Assembly (NCBI GenBank): GCA_947053455.1
Contig: CAMRSV010000001.1
Span: 36,937 to 100,936, forward strand
Reading direction: 5' to 3'
Source of the DNA: an uncultured Alphaproteobacteria bacterium
Lineage (GTDB): Bacteria > Pseudomonadota > Alphaproteobacteria > Rs-D84
DNA: 64,000 nucleotides
Shown here: piece by piece, positions 5,583-51,773 of the stretch
Layout: each line of letters opens with the position of its first letter
How positions within the stretch are numbered: position 1 is the stretch's first letter
Position numbers and translations under genes: made by a program
The notes under the pieces: generated by a model
What the model was told of the DNA's origin: nothing
What the model saw: only the letters and a program-made list of their open reading frames with translations
Databases searched by the model: none

Positions 5583-5592
5583 TAAGCATTAT

Positions 5593-5626
5593 AAAAAACA
5601 AACCCGCCAAATGGCGGGTTTTTATT
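5593..5626 (+). terminator. rho-independent terminator after dksA
   Basis: Hairpin AACCCGCCAAATGGCGGGTT followed by TTTTT. Confidence 0.8.
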
Positions 5627-5669
5627 AATTTTCCTTTACCATAAATCAAGTTTATGTAAAAATATGCAT

Positions 5670-5915
5670 ATCACAGAGAATTTCTGTGATGGGGCGTCGA
5701 AACCCCTTATAGAGGGTCCGAATAAATTCGGACATTAATGGCACAAGGAAATAATTAATTATTTTCATAGTTGTGCCGCCTTCCAACCACAAAAGGTTGG
5801 AGGATGGCTGAATATATTGAATAGGCCTGCAATTCTCTATAATTGTTTCGAACCTCCAACCACTTGAACTTTTCCAGTGGTTTTTATTTATTAAAAGATT
5901 CAATGGAGTATAGAA
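5670..5915 (+). promoter_or_regulatory. conserved structured 5' leader, copy 1 (candidate riboswitch/attenuator) upstream of cysteine-rich secreted protein gene
   Basis: Perfect IR ATCACAGA-N5-TCTGTGAT (5670-5690). Box GGGGCGTCGAAACCCC (5691-5706). Hairpin CCTTCCAACC-ACAAAA-GGTTGGAGG (5777-5807). Then GAACCTCCAACCACT fused to terminator-like hairpin AACCACT..AGTGGTT+TTTTT (5850-5886), then RBS GGAG and ATG 5916. The same architecture recurs at three other loci. Confidence 0.7.
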
Positions 5916-6518
5916 ATGAGAAAATATCTTATAACTATTTTTGTTTTGTCTTTATCTTTGCCCGCCCGCGGCAACTTGGTAAGTGGCTCATATAAAGAAG
6001 GTGATTGGTGCTATAGTGATTGCACCTATCAAGGATGCCCGTCCGTCCGCAGATTTTCGTGCGGCGGATATTGCAACATGTATGAAATGCCCGATTGGCC
6101 AATCTGCAATAGTTATAACGAAGATGAATCCTGCGTAATTTGGAAAAGCAGCACAGAAATGTATTATTGCAGCCTAGGTGGGGAACATGCCTGCTACGAA
6201 ATTATTGGTTATGGCAGTAGCAAATATGAGACTTATAACACGACAAACCATAGTGTAAAATACTCTGAAATTCAGTTCGAACCAGATGACAACTATTATG
6301 ACAATTGCTCCATAGAAGACATTATCGAAGTTTCTTATGGATGCGCGGCCGGATATTATGTTTCAAGCGGATATGGTTCTAATATTTATTGTTCGACATG
6401 TCCCAACGGCGGTACAAGTTATATCGGAAATATTTCTCAATCTAATTGTTATTTACCCGCGGGAAATTTTAGCGATGCAACCGGCACCGGACAATATACA
6501 TCAAACTGCTACTGGTAA
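5916..6518 (+). CDS. secreted cysteine-rich protein, paralog 1 (EGF/ephrin-receptor-like Cys repeats)
   Basis: 200 aa with a signal peptide and about 20 Cys. The C-terminal ~60 aa (CAAGYY..C..CP.GG..C.LPAGNF..TGTGQY..C) is shared with the 37001..37618 protein. Confidence 0.75.
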   Translation: MRKYLITIFVLSLSLPARGNLVSGSYKEGDWCYSDCTYQGCPSVRRFSCGGYCNMYEMPDWPICNSYNEDESCVIWKSSTEMYYCSLGGEHACYEIIGYGSSKYETYNTTNHSVKYSEIQFEPDDNYYDNCSIEDIIEVSYGCAAGYYVSSGYGSNIYCSTCPNGGTSYIGNISQSNCYLPAGNFSDATGTGQYTSNCYW

Positions 6519-6543
6519 AAGACCGGATATAAAAACGCAAAAT

Positions 6544-6578
6544 AAAACGGGACAATAATACCGCCCCGTTTTATTGTA
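6544..6578. terminator. bidirectional terminator between cys-rich gene 1 and tatA
   Basis: Hairpin AACGGGAC..GCCCCGTT flanked by A-run and T-run. Confidence 0.6.
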
Positions 6579-6583
6579 ATAGA

Positions 6584-15937: not shown

Positions 15938-17941
15938 TTAATCAGATTTTGCGCGTGCCCCACAAATCGCACCAATACAGGAAACAATCAAAATAATTAT
16001 CATCCATGCATTTCTCCCAACCACCCGATATGGGGTCAAATGCGCCGTGCCGACATTTCCGTCAAGCACCCCTGGGGAACCGACCGGCAAATATGACACC
16101 ACCCGACCCGCCGCATCAACAAATGCACTTATTCCAGAATAATTCGCCCGAACAATCGGCGTGCCCGATTCAATCGCATAACGACGAACCATATCCAAAT
16201 GCTGATAAACGCCGGGCGTGTTGCCGAACCATGTATCATTTGTTATGTTTACAATCGCATCGGGCATCGCACCACGTGGTATCAGGGAATCAGAAAAAAT
16301 GATTTCATAACAAATTGCGGGCGCAAATGTAAATTCGCCACCATTGGTCTTGATAGAAATTATTTCTGGGCCTTTGCCGCGGTTTAAATCCGCGGGCGAC
16401 GGCATGATTCCGCCCAATGGTGAATATTCGCCGAACGGCACCAGGTGCGATTTGTTGTATATTTTTTGAACCATGCCATCCGCATCAGCCACAATCATTG
16501 AATTATAAAGTTTCGAATCCAAAAATGCAGTCGCCCCCAATACGACGGGACGTTTCAAGGCACGCGACATCGGCATGTCATTATCAACTACGACAAATGG
16601 GTATGTCGTTTCTGGAAAAATTATAATATCCGGATTCCCACCCGCGGCGGCCAAATCAATTAATTTCACAACGCCCCGCTCTGCACTGGCGATGCGTTCG
16701 GCACGAGATGCGCCATACGATATCTTCTCGGACTGGGCGCGTGCCGGTTGAACAATACGAATTGTTACTGATGATGGAACATTATCAAAGTTTGACTTTC
16801 GAATATTTTCATATCCAAAAATGGCGCCACCAATCAATGCAGCAACAAAAAAAATCGCGGAAATCATGCACATACGACATTTTCTATTACCTATAAAATC
16901 AACCGCCGCCGCAATCAGACCGACAATTATAAACGTAAGTCCCAATGCACCCCACAACGACATTGAATTTGCAATCACAGGATATGGCATTGCAATGTTT
17001 GCGACCGGATTCCATGGGAACCCTGTTAGCACCCATTCGCGCATCCACAACACCAATGTCCAAGAACCTGCGAAAACAAATGCCCGAGATGCAACCGACG
17101 CAAAATGCGCAGCCATAACAAATGGAATTGCAAACACAACCGCCCCGGCCAACCCCATGGCCAGCAACGCCGGAACGGTCCAGACTGCAAATTCTGCGGT
17201 CAATTCTGGAACAACATAAATTGAATTTAATGCCCACCAAAACATTGCAATGGCATATCCTGCGCCAAAAGGTGCCACCCGTAAAAACGAGAGCCATATT
17301 GTTTTGCGTGTTTTCCGCATCAATATCCAATACGCGAATCCAATCCCAACAATCGTTGCAGGCCATATATAAAATGGTGCAAAACCAAGTGCGGAAACAA
17401 CGCCGCAAAAAAACGGCGCAATTATATTTAACAGCCACTTTGCACGCCGCGACACCTTGCCGGACGCAGTAACAGTAACGTCATCCATATATGGATTTTT
17501 TAACCCTAATTTTTCCATTATTTTTATTTCGAATGATTCCATAATTTCTGCATCATCATCTTTGATATGATCATACCCCTGCAGGTGCAGCATCCCATGA
17601 ACCACCATGTGTGCAGTATGTTCGGCAACGGAAATTTTTGCGGCCGCCGCCTCGCGACGAACAGTATCAATAGATATATATATATCACCCATCAACACTG
17701 GGTCACCCAGTTCAAAAGACAAAACATTAGTCGGCCGGTCAATTCCGCGATAACTTTGATTCAATTCATGAATTTCTTTGTCATTTGTCAGAATAATCGA
17801 AACTTCAGAATCTTTGTATGCAGCGCCCACCGCCATGCAGGCGATTTTTTCAAAATCTATTTTATACTTTTTCCAACGATTATCGTTATAATTAACCCAA
17901 ACCTTCATTATTTGCCCCCAACGATTATGCGGTGTAATCAC
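15938..17941 (-). CDS. YbeY endoribonuclease (N-terminal ~150 aa, HGxLHLxGYDH) fused in-frame to apolipoprotein N-acyltransferase Lnt (C-terminal ~515 aa, CN-hydrolase)
   Basis: A single 667-aa ORF. The YbeY motif HGMLHLQGYDH is followed, without a stop, by MDDVTVTAS... (internal ATG at 17488), Lnt TM helices, and the catalytic CYEIIF region. Confidence 0.7.
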   Translation of the reverse strand: MITPHNRWGQIMKVWVNYNDNRWKKYKIDFEKIACMAVGAAYKDSEVSIILTNDKEIHELNQSYRGIDRPTNVLSFELGDPVLMGDIYISIDTVRREAAAAKISVAEHTAHMVVHGMLHLQGYDHIKDDDAEIMESFEIKIMEKLGLKNPYMDDVTVTASGKVSRRAKWLLNIIAPFFCGVVSALGFAPFYIWPATIVGIGFAYWILMRKTRKTIWLSFLRVAPFGAGYAIAMFWWALNSIYVVPELTAEFAVWTVPALLAMGLAGAVVFAIPFVMAAHFASVASRAFVFAGSWTLVLWMREWVLTGFPWNPVANIAMPYPVIANSMSLWGALGLTFIIVGLIAAAVDFIGNRKCRMCMISAIFFVAALIGGAIFGYENIRKSNFDNVPSSVTIRIVQPARAQSEKISYGASRAERIASAERGVVKLIDLAAAGGNPDIIIFPETTYPFVVVDNDMPMSRALKRPVVLGATAFLDSKLYNSMIVADADGMVQKIYNKSHLVPFGEYSPLGGIMPSPADLNRGKGPEIISIKTNGGEFTFAPAICYEIIFSDSLIPRGAMPDAIVNITNDTWFGNTPGVYQHLDMVRRYAIESGTPIVRANYSGISAFVDAAGRVVSYLPVGSPGVLDGNVGTAHLTPYRVVGRNAWMIIILIVSCIGAICGARAKSD

Positions 17942-19694
17942 CGTGCATAAAATTCACAACAGCCGCATTTTTAATTGTGTCGTCATTATGCAGTTTTTTC
18001 AATCCGGAATTAAACCCCAGCCGCTTGCCACGTGTTGTCATTTCTTTTGCGGCCTTGATGTACATTTGCAATTTTTCAATGTCGTTAACATCACCATTTT
18101 CGTAATTATAAACTGCGTTTTCAAAATTTTTAGCAGCCTTGCGATAATTCTCGCGTGCTTTGTCCGGCATTTTACGCGACATATATATGTCACCCATCGC
18201 ACGACGCGCACATCCGGCGGTATAGTAAGATTCTGCCTTGACATCACGGTCCATCAACAGGCTTTTGTTCGCGTTCATTCGACTATTACATTTTACAACA
18301 ACATTTACCGCGTTTTGAAAACATTCAATATCATTGTTTTGTTCGCCCAATTTATTATACGCATCGGCAAGTTCACTATATGCCCCCATATTATCCGCAT
18401 CTATATTAATCGCCTGTTGAAACAGCTCTATTGCCCCTTTGAAATCCATTGATACAATCTTGGCGTTTCCCTGATTAAGAAGTGACATGGATTCTTCAAT
18501 ATTTTTTGCGAGCAAGTTATCTTTTATCGCTGTATGTGCAACAATTCCGCGATTTTTTACCACATCAAGTATTTTTAGTCCGGCATCAAACCCGGATAAA
18601 AATTTTTCAACAGTACCGTTAACGCTGGGGCGCGTCATCACATATTTTACGGTTTGCTCCCCCAAAAGGAAATGCCCGTTTCTATAAATATTATTTATAT
18701 CAACACTGGAAAACGCATCACGACGCATTTTCAACAAATCATTCGCCGTTATAATGCCGGCGGCATACGCCGCACATACCCAACGACGCTTTAACGTACC
18801 GTCGCGCCACCTAGATGGAATTTTACCCGCAGTAAACGCATCTGCAACTTCCTGAACTGTTTTAGCACTATCTAAACGCGCGGCAATGTGCACCATATCG
18901 GATGGTCGCTGATACCCGGCCAGCAACATCGCAATCGCATGCCGGTCCGTAATATTTTTACGATTCTTTACCGCCCTCACCAATGCAGGCATTGTGTCAA
19001 ATTCAAGATGACGGCGCACCTGCTCATAATTTTCATCCTTGTCACGAACGATTGTATCGTTATCACTCGGCGTTTGCTGCAATTTGCCGTTATTGTCATA
19101 AGAATATATCCACGTTGTCCCCAGCCCATAAGTATACCTAGATTCGCCGGCATATTTACGCGGTGTCGCACGATATGTTTCTAACTCGGTCAGTCCGACC
19201 GCAATATCAACCCAATAGGCATCTAACGACAAAACTGCACTATCAATAATTTCTTTGTCGGTGTCAGTATCATTAACAATTTCAATTTTTGCGATATTTG
19301 AATCATCACGGGCATCATCCATTAATCTGTTAGCCCCAATAACAATTCCAGACAACATCATGTAGTACGTAAGGTAAGACAATATCCACGGATTCTTTTG
19401 CATAAAATCAGAAAATTTGTCATCTGCGCGCTGTGCCTTGATTTCCGGCGTAAAGAGAGATTTATACCCATGTTCCATTGCGCGCAGCAATACATTGTTA
19501 ACAATTGCAATATCAAACGTTTTTACCATATATGAAAACAGAGACAGCAGAAAGTATCCACCAACCTTTGCGGTTTGCCCCAGTTTTGATTCTGGATATG
19601 TCTGAAGCAATTGTCGACGGATGTTATCAATTTTTCCCGCCGCCCAATCCGGACCACGCCCGATTTTTTCTGCAACTGTTTTTTTATTTGCCAT
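17925..19694 (-). CDS. TPR repeat-containing protein (589 aa)
   Basis: C-terminal third shows TPR-like repeats (AIELFQQAINIDADNMGAYSELADAYNKLGE...). The N-terminal part has no recognised family. Confidence 0.6.
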   Translation of the reverse strand: MANKKTVAEKIGRGPDWAAGKIDNIRRQLLQTYPESKLGQTAKVGGYFLLSLFSYMVKTFDIAIVNNVLLRAMEHGYKSLFTPEIKAQRADDKFSDFMQKNPWILSYLTYYMMLSGIVIGANRLMDDARDDSNIAKIEIVNDTDTDKEIIDSAVLSLDAYWVDIAVGLTELETYRATPRKYAGESRYTYGLGTTWIYSYDNNGKLQQTPSDNDTIVRDKDENYEQVRRHLEFDTMPALVRAVKNRKNITDRHAIAMLLAGYQRPSDMVHIAARLDSAKTVQEVADAFTAGKIPSRWRDGTLKRRWVCAAYAAGIITANDLLKMRRDAFSSVDINNIYRNGHFLLGEQTVKYVMTRPSVNGTVEKFLSGFDAGLKILDVVKNRGIVAHTAIKDNLLAKNIEESMSLLNQGNAKIVSMDFKGAIELFQQAINIDADNMGAYSELADAYNKLGEQNNDIECFQNAVNVVVKCNSRMNANKSLLMDRDVKAESYYTAGCARRAMGDIYMSRKMPDKARENYRKAAKNFENAVYNYENGDVNDIEKLQMYIKAAKEMTTRGKRLGFNSGLKKLHNDDTIKNAAVVNFMHGDYTA

Positions 19695-37000: not shown

Positions 37001-37618
37001 CTAGTTATATGTGCATTGCGCCGACATATTATAAGTTCCGGTATTATCATTGTACGTTCCGGCCGGCAGTTTACATTGCGTGACAGACGTGCTGCCGGCC
37101 GCGCTGGTACCATACGTCGTCGTGCCCGCAGAATTTAATTCACCGGGACAACGCGTGCACTTAAGCGACGATGTCGTACCAACGCCGTAATAGCCCGCCG
37201 CACATCTATATTCATTCGTCGCCGTCTCATCACCAGTTTTTCCGCATCCGGAAACAACATTATATTTTCTTTCGCGACCAGTGCCGGACGGGCGCCATTC
37301 ATTTGTGGTGCGCATTAAGCATCCGCAACCTATAAGGTTCGGGGGGTTATCGCTATCAACAACCGCCGTGGCACCGTTAAACACCTCTCCACACATGGAT
37401 TCACAATCTTCAACATTTCCCGAATATCCATCATCATAATAGCAAAGATTTGACCCATAGTCATAACACTCGTCAACATCATTACATTCGCCGGGTGATA
37501 TGGGCTCACTCACACCACCAAAAGTATAAAGCATATCCACTCCTGGATCATCACTATATAAATAAGCATTTGCCGCAAGCGGAAACACTAGAAACAATGC
37601 GATAACAATGCTTTTCAT
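37001..37618 (-). CDS. secreted cysteine-rich protein, paralog 2
   Basis: Signal peptide present. The C-terminal domain is homologous to the 5916..6518 product (CAAGYYG..C.RCPGE...CKLPAGTYNDNTGTY..C). Confidence 0.75.
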   Translation of the reverse strand: MKSIVIALFLVFPLAANAYLYSDDPGVDMLYTFGGVSEPISPGECNDVDECYDYGSNLCYYDDGYSGNVEDCESMCGEVFNGATAVVDSDNPPNLIGCGCLMRTTNEWRPSGTGRERKYNVVSGCGKTGDETATNEYRCAAGYYGVGTTSSLKCTRCPGELNSAGTTTYGTSAAGSTSVTQCKLPAGTYNDNTGTYNMSAQCTYN

Positions 37619-37795
37619 TTAACCCCTCTTTTTATTACAAAAAAACCACTAAAAATCAGTGGTTGGAGGTTCGAAACAATTATCAGGAATTGTGGGCTTA
37701 TTTAGTTATATCGCCACCCTCCAACCCATGGTTGGGGGAAAGTTTTTTCCTGATAAGGGGTTTCGACACCCCGTCCGCGCAACACCCGCCGACAA
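37619..37795 (-). promoter_or_regulatory. conserved structured 5' leader, copy 2
   Basis: Read in gene orientation: GGGGTGTCGAAACCCC box, hairpin CCCCCAACC-ATG-GGTTGGAGG, then GAACCTCCAACCACT-GATTTTT-AGTGGTTTTTTT terminator-like hairpin, then RBS and ATG. Confidence 0.7.
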
Positions 37796-37864
37796 ATTCA
37801 TTATAAATAAAATAAGAAATAATGTAAAATAAAATATGATTATGCAATCCAAACTTGACGCTAT

Positions 37865-40314: not shown

Positions 40315-40375
40315 AAACACGCGCCGCACAAAAACAGATTGCGACGTGAAATATTTTCTCATATAATAAAAAATG

Positions 40376-40567
40376 ATATGGGGTGTTCCCATATCGGGGT
40401 GTCAGAGCCTATGTCACGGCGTCCTTTGTTGGACGATAAATCTCCTGCCGGTCGGCAGGAGGGTTGATGTTATATATTGAAGACATCACACAATTTCCGT
40501 GAAATTGCTCTGAACCTCCTGCCACTCTAATAGAGTGGTTTTATTTTGATACGAGGGGTGAGTAAAA
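40376..40567 (+). promoter_or_regulatory. conserved structured 5' leader, copy 4 (compensatory-variant copy)
   Basis: GGGGTGTCAGAGCC box. The hairpin is CTCCTGCC-GGTC-GGCAGGAG instead of CCAACC/GGTTGG. The downstream segment GAACCTCCTGCCACT-CTAATAG-AGTGGTTTT carries the matching change. Confidence 0.7.
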
Positions 40568-41767
40568 ATGAAATTCAAAAAAATATCATATGCACTTGTT
40601 GCAATTATATGTACCATTGACGCATATGGCAAGGATATGCCTTCAAATATAAAAGAAGCATGGGGCAGCCCTACACTAATTTCTGAATCTTGGAGTCGCG
40701 GCAAAGGCCACGACAGCAGCACAAACATGCCAGACCAGACATTCTGGATGAGTAAAAAGGTTCGCGCCGATAACGCAAACGACGAAGCGATTGTAATTGT
40801 ATACATGGCGCGCCAAGTTGTAGAACACGGTGGATACTTTTGCGCGACGCAACTGCGTTCACGAAACAGCGGAAAATCCGGATGCCCGAACATTTGGACC
40901 CAATATCAAAATCCAACCGGCGATTTTGAACGCACATGCTTTTGGTTATGCGAACCGGGATACACCGGCGAAAATTGTGTCAGTGGTAAGGCAAAATCCG
41001 CAGACGCATGCAAATACACAAATTTATCCGCGGCCACACTATTAAAAGATATAGGGTTTCAACAAATGGGTGGCTATGACACCGCAACGGTGGAAAGCGC
41101 CATACATGATGCCGGCGCACGATTTTTTTATAGCAATACAACTCGCAAATCCGACGAATCTGATGTCATCCTTTTGGCAAAAGAATATCTTGAAAACGGC
41201 CACGGAATTGTTGCATCACCCGCAACATTTTCCGCGCACGGTGGCATGTGGAATGCAGAGAATTATTCCGATGAATGGCTGGATTGCAAATATGGCGATT
41301 CTAATTTAACCGTGACCGCTAATGGCGGCGGGTACACAACAAAAAAACTGTGCATGCCGGGATTTGACGGCGAAGATTGCACAACGACATATTGCAAAAC
41401 ATGCGACGATACGCTTGCCAAATACAATGATAAAACAGGTTCCTGCAGTGACTGTATTGAAAACCATATCCGCAACAAAGAAGGCAAATGCGAAAAGTGC
41501 CCGGCCGGAACAACTGCGGTACAGGATAAAAAAATCTGCCTAGAGTGCAAGAAAACCGAATATGTAAAGGATGGCGAATGTGTGCCACGTGATGTAATTG
41601 AAAAAAGCGTGCTTTATAACTGCTATCCGAATGAAAACGCAAATGATTTCAAGGCATGTGTATCAAGTACATGTACAAATGACGCAAAGGTAAAATGTGT
41701 AACCGCGCAAAAACAAATTGGCACCAAAAAATGCACCGGCGGTAAATGGGGTACATGCACAAAATAA
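40568..41767 (+). CDS. secreted cysteine-rich protein with EGF-like repeats (399 aa)
   Basis: Signal peptide present. Canonical EGF-like motifs CFWLCEPGYTGENC and CMPGFDGEDC, followed by a long C-x2-C-rich tail. Confidence 0.7.
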   Translation: MKFKKISYALVAIICTIDAYGKDMPSNIKEAWGSPTLISESWSRGKGHDSSTNMPDQTFWMSKKVRADNANDEAIVIVYMARQVVEHGGYFCATQLRSRNSGKSGCPNIWTQYQNPTGDFERTCFWLCEPGYTGENCVSGKAKSADACKYTNLSAATLLKDIGFQQMGGYDTATVESAIHDAGARFFYSNTTRKSDESDVILLAKEYLENGHGIVASPATFSAHGGMWNAENYSDEWLDCKYGDSNLTVTANGGGYTTKKLCMPGFDGEDCTTTYCKTCDDTLAKYNDKTGSCSDCIENHIRNKEGKCEKCPAGTTAVQDKKICLECKKTEYVKDGECVPRDVIEKSVLYNCYPNENANDFKACVSSTCTNDAKVKCVTAQKQIGTKKCTGGKWGTCTK

Positions 41768-50591: not shown

Positions 50592-50608
50592 AACCGTCTA
50601 TGTACAAG

Positions 50609-50633
50609 AAAACGGGGCATTGCCCCGTTTTTA
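50609..50633. terminator. bidirectional terminator
   Basis: AAAACGGGGCATTGCCCCGTTTTT. Confidence 0.8.
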
Positions 50634-51527
50634 CTTTAATTCAAACAAATGCATTATTATATCACCACCTTCATATGTTGCCTCGTCTGCCAAGCCGGTA
50701 ACATTGGTGTTATTAGTATTTGTATTCCATTGACCCACGGGGGCATATGATGTCGTCGCGGACACATATTTTTCATGTGCTGTGTCGATAAAAAATTGAA
50801 CAATATTATTCCCCAAAATCCCAGCATAACCCACCGGTTGATCAAACACTGCCATATACGCATATGACACGGATGCGGATCGCCCATCCAATGCATCAAT
50901 TAGATTTGGTTTGTCTGAAATCCCAGGCCCCTTGTAACGTGCAACAAACAGGTATGTTCCCGGTCCTATGGTTCCACCCATACACATTTCATCAACCGAA
51001 AAATCATCTATGTTTGAACTGTTTATATTCTGATTTATTTTCGCACAGGATTTTACCCGACGCCATACGCTTATGTCTGATTTCGGAATAAATTTTTCAA
51101 CCGCGGACAATGTCATAAATTTATTTACATTGCCAAGCCCATCTGGCTGTGCATTGGCATTGCGACTAAAATTAACTTCCGGACAACCTATTGCGCCATA
51201 TGTGCATACCGCGCGATGAAGCCCACCCGTACAGTAATGACCCATGCCGCAATTGACACATTCACTGTTATTCATCAAGTACTGGCCAGGCTCGCACCAC
51301 TTGCCCACCCAATAATCTTTCGCCCCCACCCGCAGGCGCAGCGCCCCGGTCGGCGCAGCGGATGAATACATTGCACCATACCATTTCTCGTCTGCAATAG
51401 AAACCGCCAACGCAGGCGAAGTATTTCGCGTGGAATTAAGTGGCACTGACCGGTCGCCAAAATGCAACATGCGCGCATAACATGCGGCATTAAAAAATAA
51501 TGTAAAAAATAAAACTATATATCTCAT
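50631..51527 (-). CDS. secreted cysteine-rich protein, paralog 3 (298 aa)
   Basis: Signal peptide present. The N-terminal half carries C..G.Y....C..C..G.YC.GG repeats related to the other paralogs, and the C-terminal half is Cys-poor. Confidence 0.65.
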   Translation of the reverse strand: MRYIVLFFTLFFNAACYARMLHFGDRSVPLNSTRNTSPALAVSIADEKWYGAMYSSAAPTGALRLRVGAKDYWVGKWCEPGQYLMNNSECVNCGMGHYCTGGLHRAVCTYGAIGCPEVNFSRNANAQPDGLGNVNKFMTLSAVEKFIPKSDISVWRRVKSCAKINQNINSSNIDDFSVDEMCMGGTIGPGTYLFVARYKGPGISDKPNLIDALDGRSASVSYAYMAVFDQPVGYAGILGNNIVQFFIDTAHEKYVSATTSYAPVGQWNTNTNNTNVTGLADEATYEGGDIIMHLFELK

Positions 51528-51713
51528 CTACCGTTACGACGTAATAAATGCCGTCATATAAATCAGACGGCTGGAGGTTAGAAACTATAAAACGGTATAG
51601 TGTCGTTTATTCAGTATATTCACGAGCCCTCCAACCGAATGTTGGAGTTTTTTTCGTCCACACGGACGCCGTTTTAAAGGTTTCTACACCCCACAGCATT
51701 TATCTTATGCTGC
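51528..51713 (-). promoter_or_regulatory. conserved structured 5' leader, copy 3 (diverged)
   Basis: Gene orientation: hairpin CAGCAT..ATGCTG, box GGGGTGTAGAAACC, hairpin CTCCAAC-ATTC-GGTTGGAGG, then CTAACCTCCAGCC fused to hairpin GCCGTCTGATTTATATGACGGC with an A/T tail, then ATG. Confidence 0.6.
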
Positions 51714-51773
51714 GAAGGAATTATAACATAAAATATTCTTTATATGCCACAGATAATTTCTTATAATAATCAC

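Follow-up and report, generated by a model that had tools for sequence, protein, structure and literature searches.

Described systems closest to the locus

The EGF domain contains six cysteines within 30–40 residues, with the spacing C4-x-C5 and the disulfide bonds C1–C3, C2–C4 and C5–C6, while the Ephrin_rec_like (PF07699, formerly GCC2_GCC3), TNFR, NCD3G and furin-like domains are small extracellular modules whose cysteines follow the spacing C..G.Y and C..CP.G. Cysteine-rich proteins of the bacterial envelope are typified by OmcA and OmcB of chlamydiae, and regulons in which a riboswitch or attenuator governs surface and secreted proteins by those of the cyclic di-GMP (c-di-GMP) riboswitches. 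A further RNA, sRNA-Xcc1 (RF02221), sits upstream of symE in mobile integron cassettes of Xanthomonas (bioRxiv 10.1101/2025.06.18.660453). The four genes compared here with these systems (p1, p2, p3 and p4), together with the RNA leader that precedes each of them, lie in a stretch of 64,000 nucleotides of contig CAMRSV010000001.1 (the window), whose source is an uncultured alphaproteobacterium of the gut that has a reduced genome and is akin to Candidatus Enterousia in order Rs-D84.

Genomes of Rs-D84, including those of Enterousia, are 0.75–1.0 Mb in size and have neither a tricarboxylic acid cycle nor a respiratory chain, and the proposed lifestyle is that of a probable obligate symbiont or parasite (PMC12306168). 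These bacteria are common in animal and human guts, have genomes below 1 Mb and are thought to depend on other cells, while the way in which they contact their partners is unexplained (PMC12306168). The window genes share about 70% DNA identity with those of several leader-bearing metagenome-assembled genomes (MAGs), in which their order is syntenic.

The four proteins probably (at a rough probability of 0.6) represent three lineage-specific, Sec-exported and probably disulfide-rich families placed under one attenuator switch and serving as envelope or secreted binding proteins, a reading which starts from the observed gene structure, export-type N-termini, family relations, leader structure and regulon composition, and extends conditionally to the secretion and disulfide bonding of the proteins, to their biological role and to the trigger of the switch. 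The locus offers a concrete candidate toolkit for partner contact, made of large, fast-evolving exported cysteine-rich families that carry no annotated domains and are wired to one RNA switch outside Rfam. The shared leader is the most informative part of the finding, which as a whole brings to light protein families and an RNA switch not described before, in a gut lineage that is little understood.

Four genes in three unrelated families

Gene p1 (5916..6518, + strand) encodes an exported cysteine-rich protein of 200 amino acids with 15 cysteines, and p2 (37001..37618, − strand) a member of the same family with 205 amino acids and 13 cysteines. The product of p3 (50631..51527, − strand) is a separate, lineage-specific exported protein of 298 amino acids with 9 cysteines, 8 of which lie past the signal peptide, while p4 (40568..41767, + strand) encodes an exported cysteine-rich protein of 399 amino acids with 25 cysteines from a separate family with at least 26 relatives. 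An earlier reading of the window, made from the letters alone (the sequence-only reading), had named these four open reading frames (ORFs), all of which are present at the coordinates it gave, and had described all four as having many cysteines, a description that holds for p1, p2 and p4 (6.3–7.5%), while the content of p3 is moderate (3.0%). Background ORFs of related loci, a crude gene set, contain 1.51% cysteine, and p1, p2 and p4 contain more of this residue than any other credible gene of the window, p3 being moderately enriched. The genes are monocistronic and convergent with housekeeping neighbours. Artefactual ORFs were considered and rejected, as homologues are conserved and the ratio of nonsynonymous to synonymous substitution rates (dN/dS) is 0.1–0.2.

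All four proteins start with a Sec-type signal peptide as judged by sequence reading, in agreement with the sequence-only reading. Each N-terminus comprises an n-region with lysine or arginine, 11–15 hydrophobic residues and small residues at positions −3 and −1, with cleavage sites read, from p1 to p4, as ...LPARG|N, ...ANA|Y, ...CYA|R and ...AYG|K. The N-termini of the AlphaFold models of p2 and p4 have a predicted local distance difference test score (pLDDT) below 50, which fits the signal-peptide reading, and homologues in the p1/p2 and p4 family alignments begin with an N-terminus of similar type. The proteins would thereby reach the envelope or the outside of the cell, presumably stabilised by disulfides. 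Two other routes were examined and rejected, the lipoprotein reading because the lipobox is absent from all four proteins, and the Tat substrate reading because the twin-arginine motif is absent.

The sequence-only reading had treated p1–p4 as one family of four, and this does not stand, as only p1 and p2 are homologous. Comparison of profiles with hhalign gives a probability of 1.1% for the p1/p2 family against the p4 family, and of 0.2% and 0.9% for p3 against each of the other two families; the single-family idea was consequently rejected. By these profile comparisons p1–p4 form three unrelated, uncharacterised and lineage-specific families, comprising p1 with p2, p3, and p4.

The C-terminal domain which p1 and p2 had been said to share is confirmed by 40% identity over 67 residues and by the family profile, which matches p1 at 2e-34. 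In p1 this module (CAAGYY...CxxCP...C.LPAG...TGT...C) occupies 6336..6515 on the + strand, where BLASTP and tblastn against p2 give 39–40% identity over 67–69 residues, and in p2 it occupies 37007..37210 on the − strand, as located by the pairwise match and the family alignments. The consensus of the family alignments is YRCAAGYYG...C.RCP...GTSAAGST.IT.CY.P.G...D.TG......CYY. A word-indexed homology search with p1 returned nothing beyond a 99%-identical copy of itself, the same search with p2 returned 15 homologues, and an exhaustive profile search, which matched p1 at 1.6e-28, returned representatives of 1371 clusters (formed at 50% identity) with E ≤1e-3, including 662 with E ≤1e-10. The best 150 of these 1371 relatives are mostly about 200 amino acids long (range 119–338), and most of them are matched over most of their length. 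Family members bearing a name are listed as "hypothetical protein" of uncultured Alphaproteobacteria MAGs, and twelve members are encoded directly downstream of a leader. In the AlphaFold model of p2, residues 100–205 mostly have a pLDDT above 85 (one block of 10 residues has 75), while the N-terminal half scores low.

The homologue search with p4 yielded 26 relatives of 26–100% identity, none of which carries a precomputed Pfam domain. Their alignment contains invariant cysteines and two conserved motifs of the form C.PG[YF].G..C. The first, CFWLCEPGYTGENC (40937..40978, + strand; residues 124–137), is an EGF-like half-motif with the spacing C124-x3-C128-x8-C137, and these three cysteines are invariant in 26 sequences. 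The second half-motif, CMPGFDGEDC (41351–41380, + strand), has the spacing C262-x8-C271 and stands by itself, its C262 being invariant in 26 sequences. It is followed by a C-terminal cysteine-ladder region (41393..41587, + strand; residues ~276–340) with weak resemblance to TNFR, NCD3G and ephrin-receptor-like modules. A syntenic p4 ortholog in the related locus L003 also has the leader, which is absent at the more distant p4 relatives in L004 and L005.

The only relative found for p3 is a leader-associated gene in locus L089, which aligns with the N-terminal residues 15–74 at 39% identity, and no close relatives of p3 were found in the JGI metagenomes. The sequence-only reading had described cysteine repeats in p3; the pattern C..G.Y..C..C..G.YC.GG occurs once, as the single motif CEPGQYLMNNSECVNCGMGHYCTGG...C (51204..51296, − strand; residues 78–108), and is not kept in the L089 relative.

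A shared leader with two mutually exclusive folds

The same leader element precedes all four genes, as had been proposed; the 64 kb contain exactly four copies of it, one immediately upstream of each of these genes. Its units have a constant order, namely a sigma-70-like promoter, a structured RNA of about 170 nucleotides, an intrinsic terminator, a Shine-Dalgarno site and the start codon. The p1 leader (5660..5890, + strand) contains a 5′ hairpin, a GGGG box, a long-range helix, the GGTTGGAGG/CCTCCAACC switch helix and a terminator, and has an insertion of about 45 nucleotides relative to the other copies, so that nhmmer finds it in two pieces (5660–5721 and 5782–5890). The p2 unit (37636..37828, − strand) comprises the promoter TTTACA-17-TATAAT at 37828–37800, the leader at 37636–37806 and a terminator at 37664–37644 followed by a T-run. 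The p3 leader (51543..51727, − strand; 129 bits with nhmmer) bears a −10 box at the 5′ end and, at the 3′ end, a terminator. The p4 unit (40339..40548, + strand) comprises the promoter TTGCGA-17-TATAAT at 40339–40367, the leader at 40361–40548 and a terminator at 40521–40539 followed by a T-run. Two ORFs, of 83 amino acids (5652–5903, − strand) and 72 amino acids (51548–51766, + strand), lie antisense across leaders and are almost certainly not genes.

Two folds were counted on an alignment of 100 diverse leader copies. Fold A contains the 5′ hairpin and the long-range helix UCGAAAC/GUUUCGA, which is 99% paired and in which, in about half of the sequences, both partners are changed at three of the pairs. 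Its other elements are a second long-range helix, three hairpins (an optional one, CUCCAAC/GUUGGAG, and one whose conserved loop has the consensus GAAUAUAUUGAAUAA) and the terminator. In fold B, GGUUGGAGG pairs with CCUCCAACC, again at 99%, UA being exchanged for CG or for AU, and two hairpins are enclosed. Pairing reaches 87.6% and 93.0% of cells in the two folds and falls to 33–53% when the partner is slid by 1–3 columns; both partners have changed in 33 of the 45 pairs of one fold and in 20 of the other's 31, and the covariation score was reached by 0 of 500 shuffles. An independent RNAalifold prediction yields the 5′ hairpin, the switch helix of fold B and a GRGG/CCYC hairpin (25 GC to AU exchanges); combined with the long-range helix, this last hairpin takes on the geometry of an H-type pseudoknot.

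GGUUGGAGG is contested between the two folds, and the residues AACC at alignment columns 239–242 are common to the terminator stem and the GGUUGGAGG/CCUCCAACC helix. This layout is the classical anti-antiterminator/antiterminator/terminator arrangement. Covariation and layout mark the leader as a predicted transcription attenuator with two conserved, mutually exclusive folds, new to Rfam and undescribed. The minimum free energy (MFE) fold of the p2 leader is fold A with the terminator (−60.5 kcal/mol, z-score −4.49), and the default state of the leader is therefore probably "off".

In the terminator fold, the computed ground state of the p2 leader, the 5′ box would pair with a distant 3′ segment and the CUCCAAC segment would capture GGUUGGAGG, freeing CCUCCAACC to build the terminator stem. 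In the readthrough fold, GGUUGGAGG would instead pair with CCUCCAACC to give a three-way junction, which removes the AACC needed by the terminator, so that transcription would continue. A signal, which may be a small ligand, a protein or an RNA, would set the balance between the folds, and the switch would turn on together a regulon of mostly exported, often cysteine-rich proteins and small XRE regulators.

In this arrangement the leader resembles the riboswitch and attenuator regulons exemplified by c-di-GMP, in which one structured 5′ leader with a terminator/antiterminator precedes many unlinked genes and the controlled genes are enriched for exported proteins and regulators; it differs from them in matching no Rfam riboswitch and in being confined, as sampled in at least 118 stretches, to gut Alphaproteobacteria of Rs-D84 type. 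On the window no Rfam family reaches its gathering score, and at permissive E-values the leaders match sub-threshold sRNA-Xcc1 only. A literature string search for the leader core returned nothing relevant. The at least 118 stretches come from a scan of species-representative genomes with the leader pattern, and nearly all of those listed belong to gut, rumen, faecal or termite MAGs assigned to Candidatus Enterousia, "uncultured Rickettsiales" or Alphaproteobacteria. In IMG/VR the leader was found on three contigs (L134, 12108–12172; L135, 8523–8587; L136, 856–920), where the downstream genes are as in the MAGs (a 316-residue signal-peptide protein and a 595-residue ABC-type protein), and these "viral" contigs are probably misclassified host DNA or prophage-flanking DNA.

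Composition and turnover of the regulon

The leader profile (nhmmer) gave 146 matches in 1.03 Mb of fetched loci, with 108 downstream genes confidently called. Of their products, 42 combine a signal peptide with a high cysteine content, 25 have a signal peptide alone, 34 are small proteins with no signal peptide and 7 are of other kinds. When genes with 100 amino acids or more are compared, 61% of those behind a leader encode a cysteine-rich protein with a signal peptide versus 8.4% of the background (odds ratio 17, p = 5e-24), and the cysteine content is 4.05% versus 1.51%; only this contrast between leader and background is to be trusted, since the signal-peptide heuristic is liberal. The proposal of a co-regulated exported cysteine-rich set behind one leader is thus borne out as an association conserved across genomes.

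Among the 34 small proteins, 25 fall into one cluster of 27 members, the other two members being scored as signal-peptide proteins. XRE-type helix-turn-helix models (HTH_3/19/31) match six of seven tested members of this cluster, two of them above the curated cut-off. These XRE-type proteins have about 70–100 amino acids and are found in L004 (17473–17887) and also in L006, L009, L031, L034, L044 and others; they could regulate the switch or belong to its circuit. In L003 a divergent leader-like copy (17987–18058, − strand) stands upstream of a DUF805 gene (17411–17944, − strand), and its switch helix GGTTGGGG...CACCCCGACC carries a compensatory change. The regulon is probably larger than counted, because the nhmmer profile missed this copy. 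Secreted proteins encoded downstream of the leader in L028, L030, L108 and L107 contain a motif like ...NWY.DG....TTTC..G......P.K.GY.F.GW, which by eye resembles a Listeria/Bacteroides-type repeat.

Compared with a sister genome (dS 0.33–0.86), p2 has a dN of 0.164 and a dN/dS of 0.20, both the highest of 17 syntenic genes, while p4 has a dN/dS of 0.106 and the median of the 17 is about 0.05. Both p2 and p4 are constrained and hence real genes, and p2 is fast-evolving. In the distant genome L024, the slot of p1 (after dksA) holds a family member of 32% identity beside a DksA of 73% identity, and the positional counterpart of p2 in a distant genome is 36% identical over the C-terminal half, with a neighbour of 72% identity. 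The dksA–tatA slot (window 5583–6583) holds a different leader-gene unit in opposite orientation in other genomes, and in L003 there is no p3 between yebC and ruvC (window slot 50592–51743). Since these two slots, compared across L117, L027, L024 and L003, contain differing units or none, leader-gene units turn over at fixed genomic positions, which suggests cassette-like gain, loss or replacement.

Relation to EGF and ephrin-receptor modules

The sequence-only reading had called the proteins eukaryote-like and related to EGF or ephrin-receptor modules, and this label finds no support in the domain searches, as the Pfam EGF, Ephrin_rec_like and TNFR models stay below cut-off on all four proteins. 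Pfam and NCBIfam models gave nothing above cut-off on any of the four, EGF models gave no match on p1–p3, and Ephrin_rec_like gave none on p1–p4. The origin of the best 150 p1/p2 relatives speaks against the label as well, those that carry a name coming from MAGs of Alphaproteobacteria and not from eukaryotes.

A Pfam scan of 100 p1/p2 relatives gave weak Ephrin_rec_like matches in three (best E 2.5e-5), TNFR_ELAPOR1_6th in two and EGF_laminin in one. The p1/p2 family profile, searched against all PDB chain sequences including Eph receptors, retrieved only a nanobody at E 1.2. The p3 cysteine motif matches TNFR_ELAPOR1_6th at E 0.005, a sub-threshold score of 17.1 bits against a cut-off of 33.2, and residues 286–318 of p4 match the same model at E 5.7e-4 (20.2 bits, cut-off 33.2). 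The sole EGF-type match on p4 is EGF_PEAR1L at E 5.2, with 7.6 bits against a cut-off of 37.5. Within the p4 family all Pfam matches are sub-threshold, comprising NCD3G in 8 of 26 sequences, EGF_Teneurin in 6 of 26 (E 0.14 or weaker), Ephrin_rec_like in 4 of 26 (best E 0.0069) and Furin-like_2 in 1 of 26.

The EGF motifs of p4 had been called textbook ones. The two conserved C-x-PG-[YF]-x-G-x-x-C motifs are hairpin-like and recall the C5–C6 part of an EGF domain; CFWLCEPGYTGENC, however, has C-x3-C and not CxC, there is no upstream C1–C3 set, and the six-cysteine EGF pattern is absent. The AlphaFold model of p4 has a pLDDT of 85.5 and a predicted template modelling score of 0.72. Searched against solved structures, the p2 and p4 models have no similar structure; p4 has no PDB neighbour, its top Foldseek matches being metabotropic glutamate receptor (mGluR) chains at a probability of at most 0.14, and no EGF structure rises above noise among its fold neighbours in whole-chain searches. 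The bulk of p4 is without a known fold relative, while its C-terminal stretch (residues ~276–340) may be a distant TNFR/NCD3G-type cysteine-ladder module.

Compared with Ephrin_rec_like, TNFR, NCD3G and furin-like modules, the proteins are alike in cysteine spacing, in the weak sub-threshold profile matches of some relatives and in the mGluR chains, which contain such a cysteine-rich domain, among the non-significant fold matches of p4. They differ in having no match above cut-off in p1–p4 and no PDB match in sequence or fold, in the arrangement of the p1/p2 module, which occurs once, at the C-terminus of proteins of about 200 amino acids, and forms no tandem arrays, and in the origin of the named p1/p2 relatives, which are from uncultured Alphaproteobacteria. 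In the domain searches p1–p3 show essentially no such relation, an outcome that the cysteine-rich C-terminal stretch of p4 weakly escapes. The EGF/ephrin-receptor label has no significant test behind it and survives as a weak possibility for that stretch. Cysteine spacing alone does not make proteins EGF- or ephrin-receptor-like, a tempting misreading that is corrected here.

Possible function and alternative explanations

The p1–p4 proteins would be envelope or secreted binders that are used in contact with a partner cell or host and diversify quickly, and a host-interaction role would be plausible given the obligate symbiont or parasite lifestyle ascribed to the lineage (PMC12306168). It is conceivable, as a tentative extension on which the odds are rather against, that the leader represents a new class of signal-sensing switch (a riboswitch or a protein-dependent antiterminator) governing the partner-contact secretome of Rs-D84, with p1/p2 and p4 providing new disulfide-rich folds for attachment or recognition. 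The leader would also serve as a handle, as sequence searching suffices to list the regulon, metatranscriptomes would show whether the switch is on or off, and its trigger is open to biochemical search.

Several points weigh against the reading of p1–p4 as exported, disulfide-rich binders under one switch. The export heuristic is crude, 41% of background ORFs being flagged by it too; a Sec signal alone takes a protein of a diderm cell no further than the periplasm, and no secretion system is identified here; the leader also precedes genes of non-secreted proteins (XRE regulators, the ABC-type protein and the DUF805 gene). The mature p1 and p2 proteins have odd numbers of cysteines (15 and 13), and the absence of a respiratory chain in Rs-D84 (PMC12306168) leaves the formation of many disulfides unexplained. 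The exported cysteines could bind metals instead of forming disulfides, and metal binding or intermolecular bonds may be the alternatives given these two features. The fold searches were whole-chain comparisons, by which small disulfide modules are poorly detected, so that a remote kinship with TNFR or ephrin-receptor modules may exist, and the leader could be a stand-alone small RNA gene.

In the last case the upstream element would be an independent small RNA gene, distantly related to sRNA-Xcc1, or the remnant of a mobile cassette, and its sharing would imply no co-regulation. The element does have its own promoter and terminator, and the dksA–tatA slot holds different leader-gene units per genome in either orientation. 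The sRNA-Xcc1 model moreover matches the core of fold B, the three-way junction, in six leaders at 32.4–39.7 bits; the two RNAs have in common the readthrough-fold core, with an outer G-rich/C-rich helix that encloses two hairpins and is followed by ACC and a U-tract, and a position upstream of a gene, which is symE in the mobile integron cassettes of Xanthomonas (bioRxiv 10.1101/2025.06.18.660453). None of these scores, however, attains the gathering score of 53, and the p1 leader is unmatched, so the match is a resemblance and not membership. The leader differs in having an extra 5′ half of about 90 nucleotides (a P0 hairpin, the GRGG box with its pseudoknot-like long-range helix, and the anti-antiterminator segment), and in its taxon and downstream genes. 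In nearly every well-called case it lies at most ~70 nucleotides upstream of an ORF on the same strand with a Shine-Dalgarno site, and two exclusive covarying helices, one of them overlapping the terminator stem, are the signature of a switch and not of a plain small RNA; the p4 unit, besides, is syntenic and not mobile. The small RNA or cassette origin is accordingly quite unlikely.

Two other explanations concern the proteins themselves. That they are structural components of the periplasm or outer membrane, cross-linked by disulfides as in the chlamydial OmcA/OmcB complex, and not binding or effector proteins, is unlikely, even though export signals and high cysteine content in a partner-dependent bacterium with a reduced genome (PMC12306168) are common to both cases, the odd cysteine numbers of mature p1 and p2 would permit intermolecular bonds, and co-regulation by one switch would suit a programme of development or envelope remodelling. 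A comparison with Omc proteins showed no similarity in sequence or fold, the lipobox is absent, and the diversity and turnover of the Rs-D84 proteins are far greater, the extreme diversity of 1371 clusters and the fast divergence and replacement at conserved slots being more in keeping with exposed recognition proteins than with structural ones. Still more doubtful is the view that the four form one eukaryote-like EGF/ephrin-receptor-like effector family, acquired from or mimicking the animal host and aimed at it. The spacing C..G.Y..C..CP.G in p1, p2 and p3 and C.PGY.G..C in p4, the recurring sub-threshold Pfam matches (TNFR_ELAPOR1_6th on both p3 and p4, Ephrin_rec_like in 3 of 100 p1/p2 relatives, and NCD3G, Ephrin_rec_like, EGF_Teneurin and Furin-like_2 in the p4 family) and the mGluR chains at the top of the p4 fold matches point in this direction, but the curated cut-off is reached by no model on any of the four and the three groups are mutually non-homologous. 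The p1/p2 profile finds nothing in PDB sequences, Eph receptors included, the best 150 relatives are mostly short proteins and not long multi-repeat ones, with alphaproteobacterial origin wherever they are named, and p4 lacks the six-cysteine pattern. The interpretation as lineage-specific exported binders under one attenuator is therefore preferred.

A further gene of the window

Elsewhere in the window, a single ORF of 667 amino acids (15938–17941, − strand) encodes a YbeY endoribonuclease together with an apolipoprotein N-acyltransferase (LNT_N, CN_hydrolase). It is one gene also in the near-identical contig L001, and represents either an unusual fusion or an in-frame readthrough of two genes.

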